NCBI GenBank assembly: GCA_040876345.1
Contig: JBBDPM010000001.1
Location: 270,313 to 334,312 of the forward strand
Length of the DNA: 64,000 bases
Direction of reading: 5' to 3'
Source: Candidatus Woykebacteria bacterium
GTDB taxonomy: Bacteria; Patescibacteriota; Microgenomatia; Woykebacterales; RBG-16-39-9b
Position 1 is the stretch's first letter; each line of letters starts with the position of its first letter. Shown here in pieces: positions 976 through 50,332 of this stretch. The translations under genes were made by a program, and so were the position numbers. The notes below the pieces were generated by a model that was given only the letters and a program-made list of their open reading frames with translations, was not told the origin of the DNA and did no database searches.

Positions 976-2002
976 AATACTTTTTTTATCAATGTATCCA
1001 CTTCAAGTGTTAGACAGCGCGCCCAAAGTGCGTTCTTTTTTTCTACATCAGGAGCTTAACAAAATTGAAAAGACAGATTTAATATCGGGTACTAGGTGGA
1101 AAAGAACACTAAAATTGGGTAAATATATTTTTAATGGTAACTTTTCTAAACTAAGATTTATTTATGTTGAGAGTTCAACTACTATTGGTTCACCGTTAGA
1201 GCTTTTTTTTCTTTTTGTCTCTAAAGTGTTGAACAAAAAGATCTTTATGTACATTCGTGATGCTTACCCCTTATTTCCTGAAGAATTCCCAGTCGGTAAT
1301 ATTAAAACCCAGTTGTTATATTGGGGTTGGAAAGTTTCAATAAGTGTTTATAAATCTGTAGGCACAAAGTTACTTTTTCCGACAAGAGAGTTGGCAAATT
1401 TGTTTAAACTGTCAAAAAGTAAAATAGGTTTATTACCGCCTGGAGCGAATGTTTTTAAATCTGTATCAATTCCAATGCTGTCCCATAAAATAGGCTATCT
1501 AGGAGAGCTTTCTTCCCAGACCGGATACGAACTAATGATTGAGGCTCTTAAAAAGGTTCGTAAACAGTTTTCAGACGCCCAGTTAATTATAGTTACCAGG
1601 AGAGATGAGGTAAAAAATATTAAGGAAGATTTTTTTGAGTATCGCTTTGCGCAGGCCCAAGATATTGATAAAGTATTATCTGATTGTTCTATATGTTTAA
1701 TAGCACGGCCCATCAAGGGATACAATTTATTAACCCTACCCGTAAAATTATTTGATTACATGGCTTTGGGTAAGGCAGTAGTAACCACAGATTTGCCCGC
1801 GGTTGCTAAAATTGTTGAGGCTGAAGGTATTGGGCTTATCGCGGAGGACAGCGCTGAGAATATTGCTAATAAAATAATTGCACTTCTTAAGGACCAGAAT
1901 AGACTAAAGGAAGCCCAAGAGAATGCTTTTAAGGCGATAAGAGATAAACACTCCTGGGCTCACAGGGCAAAGGACTTATACCAAATTTTGAACAATGCTT
2001 AA
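968..2002 (+). CDS. glycosyltransferase, GT4/group-1 family
   Basis: C-terminal GT-B fold signature (ELSSQTGYELMIEAL...LFDYMALGKAVVTTD...); overlaps neighbours by few nt (operon). Confidence 0.65.
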   Translation: MSRILFLSMYPLQVLDSAPKVRSFFLHQELNKIEKTDLISGTRWKRTLKLGKYIFNGNFSKLRFIYVESSTTIGSPLELFFLFVSKVLNKKIFMYIRDAYPLFPEEFPVGNIKTQLLYWGWKVSISVYKSVGTKLLFPTRELANLFKLSKSKIGLLPPGANVFKSVSIPMLSHKIGYLGELSSQTGYELMIEALKKVRKQFSDAQLIIVTRRDEVKNIKEDFFEYRFAQAQDIDKVLSDCSICLIARPIKGYNLLTLPVKLFDYMALGKAVVTTDLPAVAKIVEAEGIGLIAEDSAENIANKIIALLKDQNRLKEAQENAFKAIRDKHSWAHRAKDLYQILNNA

Positions 2003-3401: not shown

Positions 3402-4620
3402 CCAATATTTTTATCCTGAATCTGGAGCCGGTAGTTCACGGGCCTACTTCTTTGCTAAATACCTGACGGAACTTGGTCATAGCATTAAAGTTCTTTGCGC
3501 TACTCCAAATTACCCCAGTGGAGAAGTGTACAAGGGTTACAAAAACAGCTGGAGAAATAAAGAAAATCTAAGTGGTATAAACGTTATAAGAACTCTGGTG
3601 TATCCAGCAAGATATTCGGGTTTTGCAAAGAGATTTTTCAACTATGCATCTTTTACTTTCTCCTCATCAGCTGAACTTCTAAGAGGAGAAGATTTTGACG
3701 TGATCTTAGTTAGTTCTCCGCCGATCTCCGTTTTTTTAGTTGGACTATTGGCCCGCAATGTTAAAAAAACACCCCTGGTTTTAGATGTGAGAGACGTGTG
3801 GCCAGGGGCGGCCGTAGCGACAGGAAACCTGAAAACTAAATGGGTTGTAAAGGCGTTGGAGACTCTTGAGAAATTATCATACAAAAAAGCCAATAAAATT
3901 GTGACGGTGAATGAAGAAACGAAAGGTATATTGCTAGAAAATAATGATTTTCTAGAAAAAGAAAATGTAGAAGTAGTGTTTAATGGGGTTGATTTGGAGC
4001 TGTTTAAACAAATTCCCAAACACTCTATTAAAACAAAAAATACAGTTACGCTCTCAATTGTTTACACAGGTACTATTGGTGAGCAGCACAGTTTCTCAAC
4101 TTTCTTAGAGACTTTATCAATGTTAAATAAAAAGGCTAAAAATGTAAAATTTAGCGTCATCGGGGAAGGCTCAAAGAGAGATTACTTTATCGAGGCTATT
4201 GATGAAAAGAAACTCAGCAATATCTCCTTTCGTAGAGACTTAAAGTACCGGGATATACCTTCACTTCTTAACAACTATGACTTGGGTTTAGCGCTTTTGC
4301 GAAGCAATAAGTATTTAGACTCAGCTTATCCGGTAAAGACATTTGATTATATGGCAGCTGGAAAGCCCGTATTAGTCAGTGGTGGTCTTGCGATGAGGAA
4401 GTTAGTAGAAGAGAACAAAATAGGTTTTTGGGTACCAGCAGAGGACCCGAAAGCACTAGCCTCTAAAGTTATTGAAATTTCCAGACTGCCAAGAAACAAG
4501 CTTTGGGAAATGGGGGAGCGGGGCAGAAAATTAGTAGAGGAGAGGTTTAATCGAGCAGAGCAGGCAAAAAAATTGGAAAAAATATTGGAGGACGTGGTTC
4601 AAAGTGAAAATCGTTCTTGA
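3382..4620 (+). CDS. glycosyltransferase, GT4 family (WbuB-like)
   Basis: MKILIISQYFYPESGAGSSRAYFFAKYL N-terminus typical of GT4 WbuB-like enzymes; start moved to ATG 3382 (ORF track begins upstream at 3358). Confidence 0.75.
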   Translation: MKILIISQYFYPESGAGSSRAYFFAKYLTELGHSIKVLCATPNYPSGEVYKGYKNSWRNKENLSGINVIRTLVYPARYSGFAKRFFNYASFTFSSSAELLRGEDFDVILVSSPPISVFLVGLLARNVKKTPLVLDVRDVWPGAAVATGNLKTKWVVKALETLEKLSYKKANKIVTVNEETKGILLENNDFLEKENVEVVFNGVDLELFKQIPKHSIKTKNTVTLSIVYTGTIGEQHSFSTFLETLSMLNKKAKNVKFSVIGEGSKRDYFIEAIDEKKLSNISFRRDLKYRDIPSLLNNYDLGLALLRSNKYLDSAYPVKTFDYMAAGKPVLVSGGLAMRKLVEENKIGFWVPAEDPKALASKVIEISRLPRNKLWEMGERGRKLVEERFNRAEQAKKLEKILEDVVQSENRS

Positions 4621-10587: not shown

Positions 10588-11340
10588 ATGCATACTTTCT
10601 CGACCGAGGGGATTATCTTAAAAAGGATTGATTTTGGTGAAGCAGATAGATTAGTTACTGTTTTTACAAAAAACAAAGGTAAAATTACAAGCTTAGCCAA
10701 AGGAATTCGCAGGATTGAGTCAAGGAGATCCGGTAATGTGGATCTTCTGAATAGAGTGAAACTTTTTTTTGCCCAGAGTAAGGGCTTGCCGATTCTAACT
10801 GAAGCTGAAGCTGTCGATACCTATAAAAACCTAAAAAAAGATTTAGGAAGGGTTGGGCAAGCTTATTATTTAATTGAGTTAACAGATCAATTTTTTCATG
10901 ATCAACAGGAAAATTTTAGAGTTTACGATTTGCTATCCGAGTCGTTGAGCTTGTTAGATAGGGGAGAAAGGGTTGAGAGTATAATTCGCGCGTTTGAGCT
11001 TAAGATTCTTTCTCTGGCTGGCTACAAGCCACAGCTTTTTAGTTGTCCCAAGTGTCGTGTAAGGATTTCTCAAACAGAAAATTTTCTCAGTCCCGAGGCA
11101 GGTGGAGTTTTGGATAAATCTTGTGCTAATGGGTCGGCTATTGTGAAGTCAATATCACCGCAGATAATTAAGCTAATGCGTTTTTCGAATGATAGGCCGT
11201 TGGAGGAGTCTTTAAGAGTGAGTGTGCCGGGCAGCTTGATGGGCGATTTTAAGGCTCATATGAGGTTTTATTTGGAGTATATTTTGGAGAAACAGCTTTC
11301 CTCGACTAATTTTGCGGAGAAAATAAATGGGTTGGGGTAG
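10588..11340 (+). CDS. recO: DNA repair protein RecO
   Basis: N-terminal OB-fold motif EGIILKRIDFGEADRLVTVFTKNKGKI, C-terminal CxxC zinc motif (SCPKCRVRIS). Confidence 0.8.
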   Translation: MHTFSTEGIILKRIDFGEADRLVTVFTKNKGKITSLAKGIRRIESRRSGNVDLLNRVKLFFAQSKGLPILTEAEAVDTYKNLKKDLGRVGQAYYLIELTDQFFHDQQENFRVYDLLSESLSLLDRGERVESIIRAFELKILSLAGYKPQLFSCPKCRVRISQTENFLSPEAGGVLDKSCANGSAIVKSISPQIIKLMRFSNDRPLEESLRVSVPGSLMGDFKAHMRFYLEYILEKQLSSTNFAEKINGLG

Positions 11341-11427
11341 CAGCAGGCCGCTTGTGTTTATTGACGAGCCTGCTGCTTTCGACCCCACCTCCTTTCCAGC
11401 GCCCGCTTGCTTAAGACTGGGGCTTGT

Positions 11428-11598
11428 TTAGCCCAGCTGGACGGGTTTTTTACCACCAAGTTCCTCGCGGAGGATCTCTAGTTCCTCCGGGGCTTCGATG
11501 CCGAGCTTAACTCGACGTTTGCCGATCGAGAGTACCTTGATGAAGATGCGCCCGTCGATCCAGAACCCTTCTTGGAGTTTTCGATCCAGCACGATCAT
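11428..11598 (-). CDS. csrA: carbon storage regulator CsrA-like RNA-binding protein (56 aa)
   Basis: Not in ORF track (short). Translation MIVLDRKLQEGFWIDGRIFIKVLSIGKRRVKLGIEAPEELEILREELGGKKPVQLG matches CsrA fold pattern (MLxLxRKxxExxxIxxxIxIxVLxIxGxxVxLGIxAPxExxIxRxEL); GGAGG SD 6 nt upstream; GC clearly higher than flanks. Confidence 0.7.
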   Translation of the reverse strand: MIVLDRKLQEGFWIDGRIFIKVLSIGKRRVKLGIEAPEELEILREELGGKKPVQLG

Positions 11599-11625
11599 GT
11601 TAGGCCTCCCTCTCCTCAGTTATTT

Positions 11626-11685
11626 ACGGCTATCCTGGCCGTATTCAGGGATGTGTATTCTATACTAAACTAGCCTAGATTGCAA
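11626..11685 (-). promoter_or_regulatory. csrA promoter (TTGCAA-17-TAGAAT) and leader hairpin with GGA in loop
   Basis: minus-strand -35 TTGCAA (11680-11685), -10 TAGAAT (11657-11662), leader hairpin ACGGC-CAGGAUA-GCCGU (11626-11642) and GGA-containing SD: resembles CsrA autoregulatory sites. Confidence 0.4.
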
Positions 11686-11715
11686 ATGCACCAAACAAGC
11701 AGTATACTTTTGCAT

Positions 11716-13026
11716 ATGAAAAATGAGGAATTGATGGAAAAAATCGTCTCTCTTGCCAAGAGGCGAGGCTTCGTTTTCCCTGGAAGTGAGGTTTATGGCG
11801 GGCTTGGTGGAATTTATGACCTTGGTCCTCTGGGAGTGGAACTAGCAAATAATATTAAGCGGTTTTGGTGGAAGACTGTTGTGCAGGATAGAGAAGATGT
11901 AGTTGGATTGGACAGCGCAATTTTGATGAATAGTGAGGTTTGGCGTACTTCCGGCCATGTAAAAAGCTTTAGTGATCCTTTGGTTGAGTGTAAAAATTGC
12001 CACAACCGCTTTCGCGAAGACACGTTGCCAGAATCTAAAAACTGCCCAAATTGTGAAAAGAACGCTTGGACTGACACGAGAATGTTTAATTTAATGTTTA
12101 AAACTCACATTGGTCCTGTTCAAGATGTAGGTTCCGAAACCTATCTTCGGCCAGAAACTGCTCAGGGGATTTTTGTAAATTTTGGAAATGTTATCGATAC
12201 CATGCGGGTAAAACTTCCATTTGGGATAGCTCAAATTGGTAAGGGTTTTAGGAACGAAATAACTACCGGTAATTTTCTTTTTAGAGTTCGTGAGTTTGAA
12301 ATGATGGAGCTTGAGTACTTTACTTATCCGGAAAAAGCAGAGAAAGATTTCGAATACTGGCAAGAGCAAAGAATGAAATGGCACGAGAGCCTAGGTGTAA
12401 CGAAAAAGAATTTGAGGTTTAGAGAACACGCCAATACAGAAAGAGCGCATTATGCCGCTCGTTCAGTCGACATCGAATACAACTGGCCATTCATGGGTTG
12501 GGGAGAGCTTGAGGGAATTGCTAATAGGACAGACTTTGACCTGAAAGCCCATTCAGAGGCTTCTGGCAAGGATTTATCTTACTTTGATGAAGAGACCAAG
12601 AAGAAAATAGTCCCATACGTTATCGAGCCGTCAGTTGGTGTAGGACGCTCAATGCTTGCGGTTTTGGTCGACTCGTATTTTGAAGATGGAGATCGAGTAG
12701 TGCTTAAATTAAAACCACACCTTGCTCCAGTGAAAGTGGCTGTTTTTCCACTTCTTGCCAACAAACCAGAACTCGTCAAGTTAGCTAAAAAAGTTTACTC
12801 AGAACTCAAAATTCATAACTTTGGCCTAGTCGTTTGGGATGATAGGGGAAATATCGGTAAGCGCTACTACGCTCAAGATGAAATTGGTACACCCTATTGT
12901 ATAACTGTTGATTTTCAATCGTTGGAAGATACTACTGTGACAATTCGCGATCGAGATACTACTAAACAGAAGAGGGTCAAAATTAAAGACTTGGAAAAAG
13001 AGTTGAAAGAAAAGTTCCCTTTCTAG
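11716..13026 (+). CDS. glyS: glycine--tRNA ligase, dimeric (alpha2, eukaryote/archaeal/Thermus type)
   Basis: EKIVSLAKRRGFVFPGSEVYGGLGGIYDLGPLGVELANNIK... near-colinear with Thermus-type GlyRS; class II motifs FRNEI, RVREFEMMELEYF; start set at ATG 11716 (ORF track 11680). Confidence 0.9.
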   Translation: MKNEELMEKIVSLAKRRGFVFPGSEVYGGLGGIYDLGPLGVELANNIKRFWWKTVVQDREDVVGLDSAILMNSEVWRTSGHVKSFSDPLVECKNCHNRFREDTLPESKNCPNCEKNAWTDTRMFNLMFKTHIGPVQDVGSETYLRPETAQGIFVNFGNVIDTMRVKLPFGIAQIGKGFRNEITTGNFLFRVREFEMMELEYFTYPEKAEKDFEYWQEQRMKWHESLGVTKKNLRFREHANTERAHYAARSVDIEYNWPFMGWGELEGIANRTDFDLKAHSEASGKDLSYFDEETKKKIVPYVIEPSVGVGRSMLAVLVDSYFEDGDRVVLKLKPHLAPVKVAVFPLLANKPELVKLAKKVYSELKIHNFGLVVWDDRGNIGKRYYAQDEIGTPYCITVDFQSLEDTTVTIRDRDTTKQKRVKIKDLEKELKEKFPF

Positions 13027-13781
13027 GGAAGATCGCGGGGTTGTGAGCCATCGTAGCTGACTTCGTCTTCTTCGAGGCGGCGCACTGGTTTTTCCCTGGT
13101 TTTTTCCTCATGAACGTGAGCCACTAGACCTGCGATTCTACTGATTATGAAAAAACCGTTGCCCAGCTCTGGCGCAAAGCCAAGTTCACTCATTACCGCT
13201 GCAGTTATCCCATCGATATTTAAGCAGAGCTTCTTGCCAACTGCTTTTTCCAGCTCTTTTTCGATTTCCAAGGCAATTTCTATATGTGGGCCTTTGAAAT
13301 CTTGTTCCCCAGCTACTTTCAAGATTGCTTGGGTTCTTGGATCTGTTTCGTAAATTTTGTGCCCATAACCTGGTATGCGCTCACTTTTAAAACGTGCTTT
13401 CTCGACTATATCAGAGGATTTTGAGCTTTTTTTCACTGCGTCTTGAAGAATTTTCGCGCAAGACTCAATTGCACCACCGTGGCTTTCTCCAATCGCTGCT
13501 ACACCATTTGCCACGGCAGTTGATAGAGGAACACCACATGAAGCTGTGATTCGCGCAACCGTAGTTGAAGGGGCCTCTACTCCATGGTCGATAGAAGCTA
13601 CCAAAATAGCATTCAACATCAACTCTTCTTTTTCATTTGGAAGTTCTCCCTTGAGAACAAGAAAAATCGCCTGCGTGAAGCTTACTTTTTTGAGCATTTC
13701 GGTCAATTTGTACCCCCGAATGTGAGGTACTCCGTTAAAGTGCCCAGTTATTCCGCTTTTCCACTTCTTTTCTTCAGCCAT
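13023..13781 (-). CDS. citrate-synthase-like small-domain protein (citryl-CoA lyase-like)
   Basis: 252 aa; citrate synthase family signatures ESHGGAIE, IPGYGHKIY...DPR, C-terminal catalytic Asp region; size and content match the stand-alone citryl-CoA lyase/ACL C-terminal domain. Confidence 0.55.
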   Translation of the reverse strand: MAEEKKWKSGITGHFNGVPHIRGYKLTEMLKKVSFTQAIFLVLKGELPNEKEELMLNAILVASIDHGVEAPSTTVARITASCGVPLSTAVANGVAAIGESHGGAIESCAKILQDAVKKSSKSSDIVEKARFKSERIPGYGHKIYETDPRTQAILKVAGEQDFKGPHIEIALEIEKELEKAVGKKLCLNIDGITAAVMSELGFAPELGNGFFIISRIAGLVAHVHEEKTREKPVRRLEEDEVSYDGSQPRDLP

Positions 13782-13789
13782 AGGATTTA

Positions 13790-14686
13790 CTATTTTAACA
13801 TCTTTTTAAGTAATTTTGGTAAGTCGTCGGGTATTTCGGCAATAGCGACTCCGGCGCTTTCAAGCGCTTTTAATTTGTCGACTCTGTGGCCCATACCAGC
13901 TTCAATTATAGCACCTGCGTGTCCAAGAGCTTGGCCGTGGGGGAGCATTTCAGCAAAAAGTCCGGAGATAAAAGCGGCAACCGGTTTGGTAAATTTCTTG
14001 GATTTAATGAATTCGGCTGCTTCTTCTTCGTAAGTTCCCCCATGCTCGCCAAAAAGCACAACCCCCTTGGTTTCTGGATCTTTCTCAAAAAGTTCAAGTA
14101 AATCGACAAAAGTAGATCCAACAATCATATCTCCGCCTATTCCGGTGACTGTCGATTGCCCAAACCCTTCTTTTTTTAAAATATATGAAACTTCACTTGC
14201 CATCCCACCACTTTTGGAAATTACTCCAACATTACCTGGGGTAAAAGAAAAATTAGGATCGTCTCCACCAATACTTCCAAGTTTCACTTTTCCCGGTGAA
14301 ATAATACCAATGGAAGAAGGACCAACGACCCGAACACCTTTTTCCTTTGCGTAGGCAACTGCATATGCAGTATCTGATATTGGCATATGTTCAGTGAGGA
14401 CGTTAACCAAGGAGATTTTGTGAGCGGCTGCTTCCAATACGGCATCTTTGGCACCCATTTTTGGTACAGCGATGAAGGAGGTGTTTATCTTGGGAAATTT
14501 ATTCAAGGCTTCTTCCACAGTGTCAAAAACAGGGACAGTTTCAACTTTCTGACCGCCTTTTCCGGGAGTTACTCCAGCAAGCACGGCTGTGCTATAAGCA
14601 ACCATCTGCTTGATTGCTCGTTGGCCCTCTTTCCCAGTTGCCCCTTGAACTAAGACTTTTGTGTTTTTATCGATCAAAATAGACAT
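13790..14686 (-). CDS. sucD: succinyl-CoA synthetase alpha-subunit-like (CoA-binding, phosphohistidine GHAGA)
   Basis: KVLVQGATGKEG, GHAGAII catalytic His loop; 298 aa. Confidence 0.8.
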   Translation of the reverse strand: MSILIDKNTKVLVQGATGKEGQRAIKQMVAYSTAVLAGVTPGKGGQKVETVPVFDTVEEALNKFPKINTSFIAVPKMGAKDAVLEAAAHKISLVNVLTEHMPISDTAYAVAYAKEKGVRVVGPSSIGIISPGKVKLGSIGGDDPNFSFTPGNVGVISKSGGMASEVSYILKKEGFGQSTVTGIGGDMIVGSTFVDLLELFEKDPETKGVVLFGEHGGTYEEEAAEFIKSKKFTKPVAAFISGLFAEMLPHGQALGHAGAIIEAGMGHRVDKLKALESAGVAIAEIPDDLPKLLKKMLK

Positions 14687-14688
14687 AT

Positions 14689-15132
14689 CTAAACTAAATT
14701 TACAACTTCAGATACTTTATTGATTTTATGATTTGGTTTTTCATCTGATTTTTCCGGCAGCTCTTTTAGTCTAGGGCCAAATAAAAATTGACAAGTCTCC
14801 ATACCTTTTTGGTTACCAATCTTTATCTCACTTCTTACCCTATCTCCCACAACCAAAAATTCTTGTGGTTCAAATCCAAATTTTTCTATTATTGGGTCAA
14901 ACTCCTTCGTTCCTTCAAGCGGCATCACTTCTATGTAGTCAAAATATGTGTTTAAACCAAGATTACTTATTTGTTCTAGTCTTTTTTGCACGTCTTTTGT
15001 GCGACTTACCAAAGCTAATTTCAAACCCTTTTCATGTACTTCTTCTAAGGCTTCAATCGCCCCGTCTACAAGTTTTTCGTTTTCCGGATCATAAATTGTG
15101 TAGCCAAAATCGAAGATAATAGCTTTTATCAT
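14689..15132 (-). CDS. HAD-superfamily hydrolase (short)
   Basis: IIFDFGYTIYD (DxD motif I), ...VSRTK..., ...VGDRVRSE motif IV. Confidence 0.55.
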   Translation of the reverse strand: MIKAIIFDFGYTIYDPENEKLVDGAIEALEEVHEKGLKLALVSRTKDVQKRLEQISNLGLNTYFDYIEVMPLEGTKEFDPIIEKFGFEPQEFLVVGDRVRSEIKIGNQKGMETCQFLFGPRLKELPEKSDEKPNHKINKVSEVVNLV

Positions 15133-16343
15133 CTGCCCTCTTTACGTTTGTGTTCATTAACTAGATCAACCAAAACTTTGGCTGTGCTGGTCATTGGTGT
15201 TTCTGGGCCAAAGATGTGAAAGTTAAATCCTTCTTTCTTACCTACCTCTTTGAGCATCTCAAATGCTTCTTCGAAGCGCGGACCACCGCGGCGGATTACG
15301 ATTGGGTAAGAGGGTTTTGGTTTGATTGACCGCAAAGCATCAACAAAGCCAGCCAAAGTTTCGTAAATATCGGTAAAATTAGCGGTTGCCCCAACAAACC
15401 AAGCACCATTTAAGCCTTTTTTAGAAAGAATTAGTTTAGAAAGTTTTTCAAGTTTTTCTCTTGGAGGGTTTCCAGAATGTTCAGTGTAATTTGCTGGCTT
15501 TCCGCCAAGAGCAATCAAAGCGTCCATATTCACTAATGATCCACCACCACCGGCTGCAATTACTGCTATATCACCATCAAGCTCAATATAAGTAGAACCA
15601 GCACTTCCCCGGTGATCATTAGCGTCAATTTCTTTTGCCGCAAGTTCTGCTTCTGTTGGTTTGCGACCAAGTACATCTCGCGGTGGAAAATCAAGGTCAG
15701 TGTGGCGGAAATCGGCTTCATCATCCAAGATGACTTTAGCATCAGCAGCGTAAAATTCTTCATCTTCAGTTTCAATCAAAGGGTTTATCTCAACAAGCCT
15801 AGCATCATACTTGTTAAAGACCTCCCACATACTGAGCAAGATCTTAGTTAAAGAGAGGAAATGAATTCCTGAAAAACCTGCCTCAGAAAGTATCTCTCGT
15901 GCTTGCCAAGGTTGCAAACCCTCAGTTGGATTAACAGCAATTTTTTGGATAGATTCTTTATCCCTGGCTAATTCTTCGATTTCTACACCACCTTTTTTTG
16001 AAACTAAGGCAACGGGGGATTGGGCCGAAGTGTCAAAAGTAATACTTAAGTAGTATTCAGCCGTTTTATCAATTAGATATGGTTCGATTAGAACTTTTTC
16101 TATTTTTTCAGCACCTGTTTCCTTACCAATTAATTCTCTAACTGCGCTTTTAACCTCATCAAGACTTTTGCAAGGTTTAATTAGGCCGGATTTACCCCGA
16201 CTGCCAGATAAAACTTGAGCCTTTACTATTACTGGAAGGTCAAGGTCTTTAATGTCTTCTACAGAAGAAAAAACTTGGCCGTTAGGTACCGGAATTTGGG
16301 AGTTTTTGAAAAGTTTTTTGCCTTCAAATTCATAGAGCCTCAT
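15129..16343 (-). CDS. sucC: succinyl-CoA synthetase beta-subunit-like (ATP-grasp)
   Basis: MRLYEFEGKKLF N-term, ATP-grasp and CoA-ligase C-terminal domain (GGGGS...), 404 aa. Confidence 0.8.
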   Translation of the reverse strand: MRLYEFEGKKLFKNSQIPVPNGQVFSSVEDIKDLDLPVIVKAQVLSGSRGKSGLIKPCKSLDEVKSAVRELIGKETGAEKIEKVLIEPYLIDKTAEYYLSITFDTSAQSPVALVSKKGGVEIEELARDKESIQKIAVNPTEGLQPWQAREILSEAGFSGIHFLSLTKILLSMWEVFNKYDARLVEINPLIETEDEEFYAADAKVILDDEADFRHTDLDFPPRDVLGRKPTEAELAAKEIDANDHRGSAGSTYIELDGDIAVIAAGGGGSLVNMDALIALGGKPANYTEHSGNPPREKLEKLSKLILSKKGLNGAWFVGATANFTDIYETLAGFVDALRSIKPKPSYPIVIRRGGPRFEEAFEMLKEVGKKEGFNFHIFGPETPMTSTAKVLVDLVNEHKRKEGR

Positions 16344-25084: not shown

Positions 25085-25723
25085 ATGGATGAGACTGGCC
25101 AACCGGTCCAAAACACAGCAAACCCCAACCCAAAACCCGTTTCCTGGCCGAGAGTTTTGTTAACTGTATTAATAATAGTACTGGTGGTGAGTATATTAGC
25201 CGGTGGCTATTGGTATTTTGTACTCAACAAGCCGTCAGAGACGGTCGATACCAGCCCAATCAAAGTCTCCACTCAATCTTCAAAAAAAGCAACAGAATCT
25301 TCAAAAAAAGCCACTTCTTCTGCCAAAAAAGACGAAACTGCTAACTGGAAGGTTTACGAAGAAAAACAACTTGGATTTTTAATTAAATATCCTGGGACTT
25401 GGTCGATAAAAGCTGGGACGAGCGGTAGCGTTAGAGTCGTAAAACTAAACAAAGATCGGGAATCAATTGAAATTTATGAGGATGGAGGCATAGAAGGCGG
25501 AACTGACACGACAGTAGAACTCGCTGTTGGTTCCCACAAGCTAGAGTTCTGGGTATTCGACTCAGAGACAAACAGTCAAATTACATATGTTAATAGTAGT
25601 CCGAGATTAGAATCCAGGACATCTTCGTTGCTATTATTTTACATAATTCTTGACAGAAAAACACACGATCAGAGTTTAGCAGAGGTTAAAAAGATCCTTT
25701 CAACCTTCAAACTCCTGGACTAA
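25085..25723 (+). CDS. paralog-family member 1: Pro/Gln-rich N-tail, signal-anchor TM, S/T/K-rich linker, globular domain ending ILSTFKLLD
   Basis: shares N-terminal block (VSWPR/K-TM-WYFVLNKxS-TVDTxPIKVST-KKATESSKKATSS) and C-terminal STFKFLD motif with ORFs at 35400, 42280, 43866 and decayed copy 31283-32050. Confidence 0.5.
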   Translation: MDETGQPVQNTANPNPKPVSWPRVLLTVLIIVLVVSILAGGYWYFVLNKPSETVDTSPIKVSTQSSKKATESSKKATSSAKKDETANWKVYEEKQLGFLIKYPGTWSIKAGTSGSVRVVKLNKDRESIEIYEDGGIEGGTDTTVELAVGSHKLEFWVFDSETNSQITYVNSSPRLESRTSSLLLFYIILDRKTHDQSLAEVKKILSTFKLLD

Positions 25724-25908
25724 TTCGATTTTCGATGCTAGATACTCGATGTTCGATGATCCTAAATCCTAGATCCTGAATCAAGTTCAGGATGGCAAAC
25801 GGTTGTCAATTTGCAATCCGTACCATCCTACCTTAAAATTCACTCATGGCCAAAGAGTTACGCAATATATAGTTTGTTATTGACATGTTTTGTGGTTTTT
25901 GATACAAA

Positions 25909-26178
25909 TAAGTCATAATTGAATTAAAAGAGCCAAAAGTTTATACTCCAGAGCAAGTGGCAAGGATGCTGCAGCTTTCTAAAAATACTGTTTACGATCT
26001 TATTAATCGAGGCGAAATTTTGGCAAAAAAGGTTGGGAAAGTTTACCGTATTCCCGAAAGCTCAATTTCTTTTGTTTTTACTGGTTTAGACTCCGACCTC
26101 CTTCAAGTTGAGCAAGAGGATTTGAAAAATATCGAAACTGTCAAAAAGGAAATCTCCGGCGCCCGCAGGAAATTATAG
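25909..26178 (+). CDS. excisionase/AlpA-family HTH DNA-binding protein (putative antitoxin)
   Basis: ...KVYTPEQVARMLQLSKNTVYDLINRGEILAKKVGKVYRI HTH; conserved helix-1 extends upstream of the first ATG (25957) in an open frame back to 25903, so start is probably a non-ATG codon (ATA/ATT ~25906-25911); start coordinate uncertain. Confidence 0.55.
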
Positions 26179-26186
26179 CCCCCTCC

Positions 26187-26609
26187 ATGAAAGTTTTTGT
26201 GGATTCAGACGTGGTTATCTCATCTTTACTTTCTCAATCTGGGGCAGCTTATATTTTGACCAACGCCAAAAACCTTCAACTTTTTATTTCAAATATTGCC
26301 TATCAAGAATTAAAAATTGTTACTGAAAGGTTGGGAATAGAAAAGCAAAAACTTGATGATCTTTTAAGAGAACGGTTTAAGACAGTTGAATTAGAAGAAA
26401 ATTTATCTGTAATAAAAGGAAAATATGGAAATCTTGTATTAGATCAAAATGATGCTCATATTTTGGCTGGTGCAAAAGCAGAAAGTGCAAGGTTTTTGGT
26501 TTCATATAGCACCAAACATTTTAAGGCCGAGGAAATTAAGAGAGTCTTTAATATTATTAGTTTAAAACCGGCTTTTATGCTTCAATATTTGAGGAGTTTG
26601 CAAAAATAG
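26187..26609 (+). CDS. PIN-domain protein (VapC-like toxin)
   Basis: MKVFVDSDVVISSL N-terminal acidic motif of PIN domains, 140 aa, 9 nt downstream of HTH gene. Confidence 0.6.
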   Translation: MKVFVDSDVVISSLLSQSGAAYILTNAKNLQLFISNIAYQELKIVTERLGIEKQKLDDLLRERFKTVELEENLSVIKGKYGNLVLDQNDAHILAGAKAESARFLVSYSTKHFKAEEIKRVFNIISLKPAFMLQYLRSLQK

Positions 26610-42999: not shown

Positions 43000-43387
43000 G
43001 CCTTTTAGTTTTGGTGCCAGTCCTGTAACTACGTTTTAGTGGGTTGACTACGTTAATGTTAAGTACTATATTAGAAATAATTAAAGTGATTTCTTAGTAT
43101 TAATTGATATAGCAAGAATAAGACGAATTAGATATTCCAGCGTTTATTCGGCAAAGATAGCCCCTATAATCTTCCTACAAGTTACTTATCTTCCAAATAA
43201 CATTAATTTAGCCTAAAAACCACGTCGCTTATCGCTTATTGCCCAACATTTTAGTAAATTTGCTTGAAAGACGTATAATAATCCATGACAACAGCGAAAC
43301 CTGTTGGTAAAAGATAGAGATCGAAATTGCGGTAGTCTTGAGGAGGCTTGCTGTCAAGCTTCCGAGCACCTGCGAGGGAGGTGACTT

Positions 43388-43642
43388 GTGTCACGCAGGA
43401 TAATCGTCATAACCGTCTCCAGGGAGTGGTGGGTGATTATTGGATTCATTCTGCTACTCATTGCCTTTCAGATAGGATGCAGCTTCCTAATCGGAAAGGT
43501 GTTTCAAGAGTTGCAGGAACCGCCGCTGGCCATACCAGTTGTGCTGGTGGTAGTAAGCCCCGCACTCACCCTCCTCTTCTACCGGCTTGCTGAAAGGAGG
43601 GCCGATATACAGATCAACCGTTGTACAGAACCCGATTTCTGA
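43388..43642 (+). CDS. hypothetical 84-aa two-TM membrane protein in a GC-rich island
   Basis: GTG start preceded by GGAGG-6nt; two clean hydrophobic helices (WWVIIGFILLLIAFQIGCSFLIG, AIPVVLVVVSPALTLLFY); TATAAT at ~43273 and hairpin leader; GC clearly above flanks. Confidence 0.35.
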   Translation: MSRRIIVITVSREWWVIIGFILLLIAFQIGCSFLIGKVFQELQEPPLAIPVVLVVVSPALTLLFYRLAERRADIQINRCTEPDF

Positions 43643-43670
43643 TCAGCGGCCCAACTAGTAGCGGTGCTAA

Positions 43671-43709
43671 GAGCGTCTTCTTGGTTGAGGACGCTCTTCT
43701 CGCTTTTGG
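43671..43709 (+). terminator. intrinsic terminator (GAGCGTC-loop-GACGCTC + T-rich tail)
   Basis: 7-bp GC-rich stem, 12-nt loop, followed by TTCTCGCTTTTGG. Confidence 0.5.
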
Positions 43710-49805: not shown

Positions 49806-49933
49806 TTGAACTTATCACCACATTGTTATAACATTTCCACAACACTCAATCTTTTGTTATCGGTGGGAAAGGAGGATGGAAAACCAAGCCGATAATCCAG
49901 TAGGGTAACATCGCACGGAAGTGAAAGGAACTT

Positions 49934-50218
49934 ATGGTAACCGCAACACCTACGCAAGCAAGGTATGGAGGGCTCTCTGCTCCAGCAGTCACGTCTCGGC
50001 CCGGGGTGCCAACGCGTCCCGTTCTGCCTGAGCGTTTCAATGACGCCCGGGAAGCGGCGACCTGTCTGAGGGTGCAAGCGATCGCGAGGGGCATGACCAT
50101 CGATGAGGCCAACCGCATCGACAGGCACTGCAACTGCGGGTCGCGCGAGTACGCCATACCGGAGTACTGCGAGTACCTGGGGATCAAGGAGGCCCTGGTC
50201 TACCAGCGCATCGGGTGA
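49934..50218 (+). CDS. hypothetical 94-aa Cys-containing protein in GC-rich island
   Basis: AAAGGA-5nt-ATG RBS; promoter TTGAAC...TGtTATAAC at 49806-49836; terminator-like hairpin CACACC-GAT-GGTGTG at ~50257-50271; GC ~65% vs ~38% flanks; overlapping antisense ORFs are artefacts of high GC. Confidence 0.3.
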   Translation: MVTATPTQARYGGLSAPAVTSRPGVPTRPVLPERFNDAREAATCLRVQAIARGMTIDEANRIDRHCNCGSREYAIPEYCEYLGIKEALVYQRIG

Positions 50219-50332
50219 TAACGCAAGTAACCGGGTCGCGCTGACGCCACCAGTACCACGAACCCACCCCAAAGGATCACACCGATGGTGTGGGCTTCAC
50301 ACTTTCTTGGCTCACCTGTTAAAATACTCTTC

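Follow-up and report, generated by a model that had tools for sequence, protein, structure and literature searches.

The 64,000-nucleotide (nt) stretch analyzed here, referred to as the window (39.9% GC), comes from a genome of Candidatus Woykebacteria, which belongs to the Microgenomates group of Patescibacteria (candidate phyla radiation, CPR). On its minus strand, between recO and the glycyl-tRNA synthetase gene glyS, the window carries a short gene of the CsrA family of RNA-binding regulators. We consider it likely that this gene is a functional Woykebacteria csrA, that its core derives from Dehalococcoidia, and that it represents one allele of a recurrent replacement polymorphism in the recO-glyS slot. 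The genes that define the slot are as follows.

10588..11340, plus strand: recO, native flank of the slot (Pfam RecO_N and RecO_C; named RecO of Candidatus Woykebacteria at NCBI)
11428..11598, minus strand: csrA coding sequence, ATG start, 56 amino acids (aa), supported by the open reading frame (ORF) list, Pfam PF02599, and AlphaFold2 (AF2) with Foldseek
11458..11598, minus strand: xenologous core of csrA, codons 1–47, the only part with cross-phylum homology
11734..13026, plus strand: glyQS-type glycyl-tRNA synthetase gene, native flank of the slot (Pfam tRNA-synt_2b and HGTP_anticodon); the start at 11734 is that of the public gene call (430 aa, L001)

Origin of the csrA core

An initial annotation of the window had described a 56-codon CsrA-like gene at these positions, within a segment far more GC-rich than its background and of apparently foreign composition, and these observations held up. 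The protein encoded by the ORF (MIVLDRKLQEGFWIDGRIFIKVLSIGKRRVKLGIEAPEELEILREELGGKKPVQLG, 56 aa) matched the Pfam CsrA family PF02599 with 58.3 bits (E = 7.5e-16; gathering cutoff 27), its residues 1–48 falling on model positions 1–48 of 53. The GC content of positions 11341–11640 was 55.3%, the second highest 300-bp peak in the 64 kb. The GC content at third codon positions (GC3) of csrA was 0.649 (0.681 in the core), in comparison to 0.345 ± 0.049 for window ORFs of ≥100 aa, a difference of about six standard deviations, and to 0.386 and 0.383 for the neighboring recO and glyS genes.

The nearest relatives of the gene are GC-rich csrA genes of Dehalococcoidia. All named close homologs of the window CsrA were from Dehalococcoidia or Chloroflexota metagenome-assembled genomes (MAGs), and the contigs compared were 64–70% GC. 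Over codons 1–47 the window gene was 94% identical in aa and 82% identical in nt to the csrA of a Dehalococcoidia MAG (L003, 70% GC), and 91% and 85% identical, respectively, to that of L083, versus 49–74% (aa) and 56–67% (nt) to the csrA alleles of related Woykebacteria. The window allele also nested inside the Dehalococcoidia csrA clade in our tree. The GC3 of its core (0.68) lay between that of the Dehalococcoidia relatives (0.77–0.85) and that of the host (0.35), and the synonymous differences from L083 ran 7:1 toward A/T in the window. We attribute the GC-richness of csrA to its core likely being a xenolog of GC-rich Dehalococcoidia genes that has drifted only partly toward the composition of its 40% GC host.

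Divergence estimates give some indication of when the core was acquired. In comparison to L083, synonymous divergence (dS) of the core was 0.66 and nonsynonymous divergence (dN) was 0.075, for a dN/dS of 0.11; against the Dehalococcoidia relatives as a set, dN/dS was 0.07–0.11. By these ratios the core is under purifying selection since its acquisition. Between csrA and L083, 35% of synonymous codons differed, whereas 49–61% differed in recO between this genome and its relatives, and 45–64% in recO among the Woykebacteria genomes compared. That csrA has fewer synonymous differences than recO implies that the transfer is younger than the splits from the sampled relatives. The core thus appears to have been acquired from a Dehalococcoidia-type lineage after the line of this genome split off, and to have been only partly ameliorated. 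The tail of the gene, the 3' stretch and the leader had no match to any compared locus, except for the promoter region, which matched that of other Woykebacteria.

The Dehalococcoidia csrA copies look native to their genomes, since their GC3 fits those genomes and their contexts are conserved. In one type the gene order was response regulator, hypothetical, csrA, hypothetical, sigma factor, while csrA genes of the window's type had a MarR/TrmB-like neighbor. There are hints that the Woykebacteria and L003 MAGs come from the same study, as the window protein and the L003 protein (MEX1254050.1) belong to one NCBI accession series. In general, Patescibacteria are documented to have received genes from other phyla (PMC12455944). 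In the literature that we found, csrA in CPR bacteria or Dehalococcoidia was mentioned in passing, and neither its exchange between Dehalococcoidia and Woykebacteria nor a slot in which it is replaced was described. A CsrA diversity survey of 2026 leaves these phyla undiscussed in its main text (PMC13443453).

Alleles of the recO-glyS slot

Related contigs were reached via homologs of RecO, and comparison of these revealed that the slot varies between close relatives. The order DUF4012-recO-csrA (minus strand)-glyS was found in L086/L087, L089/L094, L090/L091, L092, and L095, whose RecO proteins were 60–73% identical to that of the window. The slot was empty in L093 (RecO 64% identical), where glyS followed recO after 105 bp, and csrA was absent from it in the deeper relatives L103 and L104 (RecO 44–46%). 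The initial annotation had regarded a csrA gene as unusual in a reduced genome, which is not the case here: most of the sampled relatives carry csrA at this slot, so the gene is no oddity in this Woykebacteria clade, and it was already annotated at NCBI.

The csrA genes found in the slot are of different types. The window and L089 had an 'EGFWI' type; L086, L087, L090, and L092 had a 'DQGIVI...VERDRVK' type, which formed a clade of its own in the tree; and L095 had a 'QQGIWIGDD' type. The window and L095 alleles grouped with different sets of Dehalococcoidia genes, and L089 fell beside the clade of the window allele. The core of the L092 allele was identical over 51 aa to a homolog, P0188, with 79% nt identity and a GC3 of 0.55 in comparison to 0.90. 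P0188 is on a 65% GC contig and has the csrA, hypothetical, sigma-factor context seen on named Dehalococcoidia contigs.

Two pairs of closely related genomes indicate that the csrA cassettes have been exchanged. L089 and L090, whose RecO proteins are 86% identical and whose flanks are 80–90% identical, were unrelated from the recO stop codon to the -35 hexamer. L086 and L087 have identical RecO proteins; their identity was 99% up to and including the tail of csrA and 79% within the core, and upstream of it they could not be aligned. In L087 two csrA domains are fused in frame, in tandem (1498–1893, minus strand), as opposed to a single domain in L086 (4440–4724, minus strand). The drop in identity between L086 and L087 likely marks a recombination breakpoint within csrA. 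Judged from these comparisons of sequence, csrA is a recurrent exchangeable cassette, and the slot holds at least three separate Dehalococcoidia-like types, or nothing. We hypothesize that DNA would be taken up from co-occurring Dehalococcoidia, and that recombination in the conserved flanks, recO and glyS, would subsequently carry the csrA cassettes from one Woykebacteria genome to another.

The slot does not have the hallmarks of a mobile element or a genomic island. No integrase or transposase, direct repeats, or tRNA target were found at it, and its neighbors are recO and glyS. Transposition-type insertion was rejected since no flanking direct repeats bracket the csrA cassette, and carriage of the gene by a phage or plasmid since tblastn returned no such homologs. 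In Legionella, csrA paralogs (csrT and those associated with lvr) are on integrative conjugative elements and are horizontally mobile (PMC4471563). Those genes likewise represent a horizontally moving csrA copy that differs between close relatives. At the recO-glyS slot, in contrast, neither an integrase nor conjugation genes were found, nor a target-site duplication or any homolog from a phage or plasmid, and the cassette consists of one gene that is exchanged across phyla at a constant chromosomal position.

The CsrA protein and its expression signals

The window gene is an ordinary, already annotated CsrA-family regulator, namely a short, helix-free variant of a subfamily that is common in Chloroflexota. 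Public gene calls and the NCBI annotation both include it, and the exact protein is named 'MAG: carbon storage regulator [Candidatus Woykebacteria bacterium]' (MEX0616516.1, MEX1130618.1, MEX2354467.1). Its sequence matched the PDB CsrA chains 1T3O, 5DMB, and 2JPP (E 1e-5 to 1e-4). An AF2 monomer model built with 64 homologs had a mean predicted local distance difference test score (pLDDT) of 80.8 and contained strands only. In a Foldseek search of the PDB with this model, the top 15 matches were all CsrA, RsmA, or RsmE chains (probability 0.75–1.0, template modeling (TM) score 0.49–0.61), and the model has the five-stranded beta core of the CsrA fold. Strands 1 and 5 were unpaired in the monomer, as is expected for a domain-swapped dimer.

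The RNA-contacting positions, which we take to be those established by studies of mutants and structures of E. coli CsrA and RsmE, are in strand 1 (residues 2–7) and in strand 5 with the start of the helix (residues 40–47, especially R44). At these positions the window CsrA aligned 1:1 without gaps, and I2, L4, R6, K7, L40, I42, R44, and L47 were identical or conservative; E45 and E46 in the strand 5 region also aligned gaplessly. R6, R44, E46, and L47 were invariant across the 64 homologs, and the window protein keeps all invariant columns of the family, excepting only a nearly invariant L2, in place of which its I2 is unique. After L47 the protein has a nine-residue tail, GGKKPVQLG. Based on its family membership, the minimal five-strand CsrA/RsmA core would form the usual interdigitated homodimer, and the dimer would bind GGA motifs of mRNA leaders, typically over the Shine-Dalgarno (SD) sequence, to control translation.

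The signals flanking the coding sequence are given here in order of position.

11325..11395, no strand assigned: long GC-rich hairpin at the junction where recO and csrA converge, arms 11325–11348 and 11368–11395, overlapping the recO stop codon
11341..11427, minus strand: csrA 3' untranslated stretch, 58.6% GC, with no homology to any compared locus
11605..11617, minus strand: purine-rich SD GAGGAGAGGGAGG, containing two GGA motifs and separated from the ATG by 6 nt
11625..11643, minus strand: leader hairpin UACGGC-CAGGAUA-GCCGUA, present in the minimum free energy structure, with GGA at 11635–11633 in its 7-nt loop
11657..11685, minus strand: csrA promoter-like site TTGCAA-17-TAGAAT (TTGCAA 11685–11680, TAGAAT 11662–11657)
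11680..11708, plus strand: divergent glyS promoter-like site TTGCAA-17-TATACT, sharing the TTGCAA at 11680–11685

A sigma-70-like promoter for csrA was located where the initial annotation had placed it, and it turned out to be part of a divergent pair. A search found four promoter-like sites, in comparison to 0.9 expected. The TTGCAA at 11680–11685 is palindromic and serves as the -35 hexamer of both the csrA and the glyS promoter-like sites, an arrangement that would put the two promoters in competition for a single site of RNA polymerase binding. The promoter frame AGTATA..GTTTGCAAAC..TAGAAT/TAAAAT was kept in all occupied Woykebacteria loci, whichever csrA allele they had, and the TTGCAA-17-TATACT half was also present in the empty-slot locus L093. 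The csrA gene would, in our view, be transcribed from a native sigma-70-type promoter whose -35 hexamer it has in common with glyS.

At the other end of the gene, the csrA transcript would terminate in a strong hairpin that it has in common with the convergent recO gene (-53.4 kcal/mol, z = -4.1). An inverted repeat had been described as closing the unit on the recO side. The repeat is present (AGCAGCAGGC/GCCTGCTGCT, 11339–11348 and 11368–11377) and measures 10 bp rather than 8, but it is part of an ordinary hairpin of the convergent-terminator type: every related locus has a hairpin at the recO/csrA junction, each of a different sequence. The hairpin is probably a bidirectional terminator or 3'-end stabilizer. 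The 3' stretch was probably imported along with the csrA core. Its alternative frame yields a 32-aa open peptide that ends in ...RKQQARQ. We considered whether this peptide is what a frameshift left of a longer tail in the donor and rejected the idea, the similarity of the peptide to homolog tails being no greater than that of shuffled sequences (P = 0.48). In L086, the 286-nt spacer between the csrA and recO stop codons (4154–4439, minus strand; 49% GC) contains eight GGA motifs and could be a 3' untranslated region-derived or independent candidate CsrA-binding RNA. Nothing comparable was found in the window.

The GGA-loop hairpin and GGA-containing SD that the initial annotation reported in the csrA leader were both found. 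The hairpin, a candidate CsrA-binding site, is 37 nt upstream of the start codon in a leader of ~50 nt, and the SD resembles the long G/A-rich SD of the Dehalococcoidia relatives. We counted hairpins with at least six Watson-Crick pairs and GGA in a 4–9 nt loop; there were 16 on both strands of the 64 kb, a frequency that corresponds to P of about 0.007 per 60-nt leader, and in the whole window that of csrA alone fell within the 120 nt preceding a start codon. The folding energy of the hairpin was nothing unusual (z = 0.12), and the GGA count of the leader was unremarkable (3, in comparison to a mean of 1.17, standard deviation 1.11, over 59 leaders).

E. coli csrA is autoregulated through its own leader, which has a GGA hairpin and a GGA-containing SD, and the window leader carries the same two elements. 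Its loop GGA and SD GGAs are ~20–25 nt apart, a spacing within the range that one CsrA dimer bridges between two sites. Self-repression of csrA via the candidate hairpin and the GGA-rich SD is plausible by this analogy; the initial annotation, which took the arrangement as one that CsrA uses for autoregulation, overstated what is an analogy only. In the Dehalococcoidia genes L003, L005, L008, L083, and L085 a different site was noted, as they share G(G/A)CA(U/C)GGAUGUU enclosing the AUG start codon (e.g., L003 5992–6006). The consensus CsrA site from in vitro selection (SELEX) is RUACARGGAUGU. The closeness of the shared motif to this consensus suggests that autorepression is conserved in the donor lineage and was lost from the window copy.

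No CsrA antagonist was found in the 64 kb searched. As stated in the initial annotation, there was no FliW domain, here among 29 scanned window proteins, which are a subset of the window ORFs, and the missing C-terminal extension of the window CsrA argues against FliW-type control. An Rfam scan of the window returned one tRNA only and no Csr/Rsm-type small RNA family, and in no intergenic 120-nt stretch did GGA motifs reach a CsrB-like density, the densest holding six to seven. A candidate CsrB/RsmZ-like sponge RNA at 25712–25831 (minus strand) was rejected, as it looks like tandem AGGATNT operator repeats upstream of a gene pair encoding helix-turn-helix (HTH) and PIN-domain proteins. A GGA-rich stretch with seven GGA motifs at 49853–49972 (plus strand) is upstream of a 94-aa ORF in a second GC island (see below).

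In comparison to characterized systems, the window CsrA is of the same Pfam family as E. coli CsrA and P. fluorescens RsmE (PDB 1Y00, 2JPP), aligns to them gaplessly over residues 1–48 with ~32% identity to E. coli CsrA, and has in common with them the predicted strand order, R44, and the strand 1 and strand 5 positions. It differs from these proteins in having no C-terminal alpha-helix (G48-G49-...-P52), a length of 56 aa, D5 for T5, and FW at positions 12–13, as well as in its CPR host and in the window having no detected CsrB/RsmZ-like RNA. Its best matches among solved structures are CsrA proteins of CsrA-FliW systems (B. subtilis, Geobacillus; 5DMB, 1T3O), with 45–49% core identity; unlike in those systems, there is no FliW among the scanned proteins, no FliW-contacting C-terminal extension, and no flagellar gene nearby. 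The closest likeness is to the 'MLVLDRK.QEGFWI' csrA genes of Dehalococcoidia and Chloroflexota (e.g., MEX1254050.1, JBBEBM010000036.1), with which the window gene shares core identity, a long purine-rich SD, and a variable, helix-free tail. Those Dehalococcoidia genes encode 75–77 aa, have a GC3 of 0.77–0.85, a CAUGGAUGU site over the start codon, and the MarR/TrmB-like neighbor, whereas the window copy has a nine-residue tail, a GC3 of 0.65–0.68, an upstream GGA hairpin in its leader, and a Woykebacteria promoter.

Alternative explanations and significance

Several points weigh against a functional, Dehalococcoidia-derived and exchangeable csrA. The csrA trees were built from 47 residues, the sampled genomes do not include the true donor (dS being 0.66 to the best match), and the proposed mechanism of cassette exchange is deduced solely from the positions of homology breaks. 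Every csrA allele in the slot is GC-rich in comparison to its own genome (GC3 0.50–0.65 versus 0.29–0.39), and the older-looking L092 allele still has a GC3 of 0.55 with dS saturated. The protein falls below the family range of 61–100 aa given in the 2026 survey, which finds csrA in about 30% of bacterial genomes (PMC13443453). It also misses the NCBIfam equivalog cutoffs (TIGR00202, 55.3 versus 70.1; NF001844, 50.3 versus 106; NF002469, 45.1 versus 73), a shortfall caused by the lack of the C-terminal third; the C-terminal alpha-helix of characterized CsrAs is absent from its AF2 model, and residue 5 in strand 1 is D where T or S is usual. The GGA hairpin is not kept in the leaders of other Woykebacteria alleles or in the orthologous leaders compared, and the window copy has lost the CAUGGAUGU-type start-codon site of the Dehalococcoidia relatives; both observations weaken the autoregulation analogy.

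The local jump in GC content is sharp and the best match is in another phylum, as would be the case had Chloroflexota reads been joined into a CPR contig. We reject such a chimera or contaminant, the possibility raised by the initial annotation as one that would undo it, as having next to no probability. Assemblies from two other sequencing runs reproduced 14 and 20 kb around csrA with 0 mismatches, the gene is carried by six contigs and three NCBI MAGs, the gene order recurs on a further five related contigs, one of which is a genome assembled as a single 915-kb contig, the closest gene from Chloroflexota is just 85% identical in nt, and the promoter is Woykebacteria-specific. A more serious alternative, although an improbable one, is that csrA is native and vertically inherited, its GC content being kept by selection on codon preference or mRNA structure and its likeness to Dehalococcoidia reflecting either how strongly purifying selection acts on so short a protein or an ancient kinship between CPR and Chloroflexota. 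This would account for the GC-richness of all slot alleles irrespective of type or apparent age, and for the L092 core being 100% identical in protein to a Dehalococcoidia-type CsrA despite saturated dS, which implies strong constraint on the protein; a groundwater study also reports high expression of csrA in ultra-small prokaryotes (PMC9938205). However, the ribosomal protein gene rplU (GC3 0.356) and ftsZ (0.346) have no GC3 excess, so ordinary expression-linked codon bias does not account for that of csrA. The window core is also far closer to Dehalococcoidia genes (94% aa, 82–85% nt) than to the alleles of its own relatives, it has fewer synonymous differences from them than recO has within the clade, different cassettes occur in genomes whose RecO is 86% or even 100% identical, and the slot of deeper relatives lacks csrA. 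By these points a native csrA is largely refuted. The raised GC3 of all slot alleles fits repeated import from GC-rich donors, and selection for a GC-rich csrA sequence may contribute to the composition alongside recent import.

A single old acquisition of csrA, followed by formation of an ancestral tandem array of paralogs and their differential loss, would require no repeated transfer. It is in keeping with the two in-frame fused csrA domains at the slot of L087 and with Dehalococcoidia MAGs that have several csrA paralog types (L025 and L106 in the same assembly, as are L026 and L107). A single old event, though, is expected to leave every allele with equally saturated divergence from the donor clade, and dS of the window allele to L083 is 0.66 while L092 versus L108 and L089 versus L085 are saturated. 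The leaders and terminators are also wholly different between cassettes, and the window has no relics of extra copies (no second tblastn match and no significant relic in another frame), which leaves this scenario somewhat less probable even than a native gene. Least probable of these histories, short of an assembly error, is that the window csrA is a decaying remnant, truncated and non-functional, that lost its tail and its original autoregulatory site after the transfer. Its 56 aa are fewer than the about 63–95 aa of nearly all relatives, the CAUGGAUGU site lying across the start codon of the Dehalococcoidia genes is lost, and I2 is unique. Against decay, the frame is intact, a promoter, strong SD, and terminator are present, dN/dS across the core is 0.07–0.11, and the invariant columns are retained apart from the nearly invariant position 2. 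Natural family members of 55–57 aa exist (P0021, P0028, P0269), and tails are hypervariable across the family and thus probably dispensable for RNA binding. Overall, we favor a functional csrA that was acquired from a Dehalococcoidia-type donor and is replaced recurrently at this slot.

Other features of the window were noted during these analyses. The highest GC peak of the window (63–65%) is an island at about 49947–50300 with the 94-aa ORF mentioned above (49934–50218, plus strand; GC3 0.74), which is between ileS and an ftsW/rodA-like gene and in which NCBI annotates just a 41-aa hypothetical protein, MEX0616557.1. The ORF and the island had no Pfam match and no Rfam match at E ≤ 1. Homologs of the ORF were found in five clusters among 1.8 billion representatives, with the motif ...AA..LR.QAIARGM...ADRIDQHC.C.SREYAIPEYC..., and it is probably a second small foreign gene. 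A third GC-rich peak at 43328–43680 (53% GC), which lacks a convincing ORF and matched nothing in Rfam at E ≤ 1, may represent a structured RNA that has gone unrecognized. The HTH_17 and PIN-domain genes (25957–26178 and 26187–26609, both plus strand) form a toxin-antitoxin-like pair, and the intergenic region before them (25724–25956) has tandem AGGATNT repeats, aggatctaggatttaggatc on the minus strand, that are probably operator sites. Adjoining glyS at 13023–16343 (minus strand) is an ATP-citrate lyase or succinyl-CoA ligase-like cluster (Citrate_synt C-terminal, CoA_binding/Ligase_CoA, HAD, and ATP-grasp_2/Citrate_bind domains), which is kept in relatives and is absent from the deeper relative L103.

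We also considered what filling of the slot from Dehalococcoidia could mean for the lifestyle of these bacteria. It is conceivable, although in our estimation rather unlikely, that this Woykebacteria clade maintains a dedicated slot repeatedly filled from Dehalococcoidia, with Dehalococcoidia as physical partner or host and a host-matching CsrA beneficial to the episymbiont. If true, a host-matched CsrA could recognize GGA signals of the host type on RNAs that are scavenged or shared, or could evade or imitate factors of the host or of phages that target CsrA, and in an uncultured CPR lineage the csrA allele would serve as an inherited marker of its association with a host. Were the link to Dehalococcoidia one of physical association, csrA alleles could help to pair uncultured Woykebacteria with their hosts, a persistent problem for CPR bacteria.

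The interest of these findings is in the evolutionary pattern, in which a single-gene regulator cassette appears to have crossed phyla into a fixed slot of a streamlined CPR genome and to have been replaced there more than once among close relatives. For the CsrA family, a natural 56-residue protein without the C-terminal helix would be useful to define the minimal functional unit.

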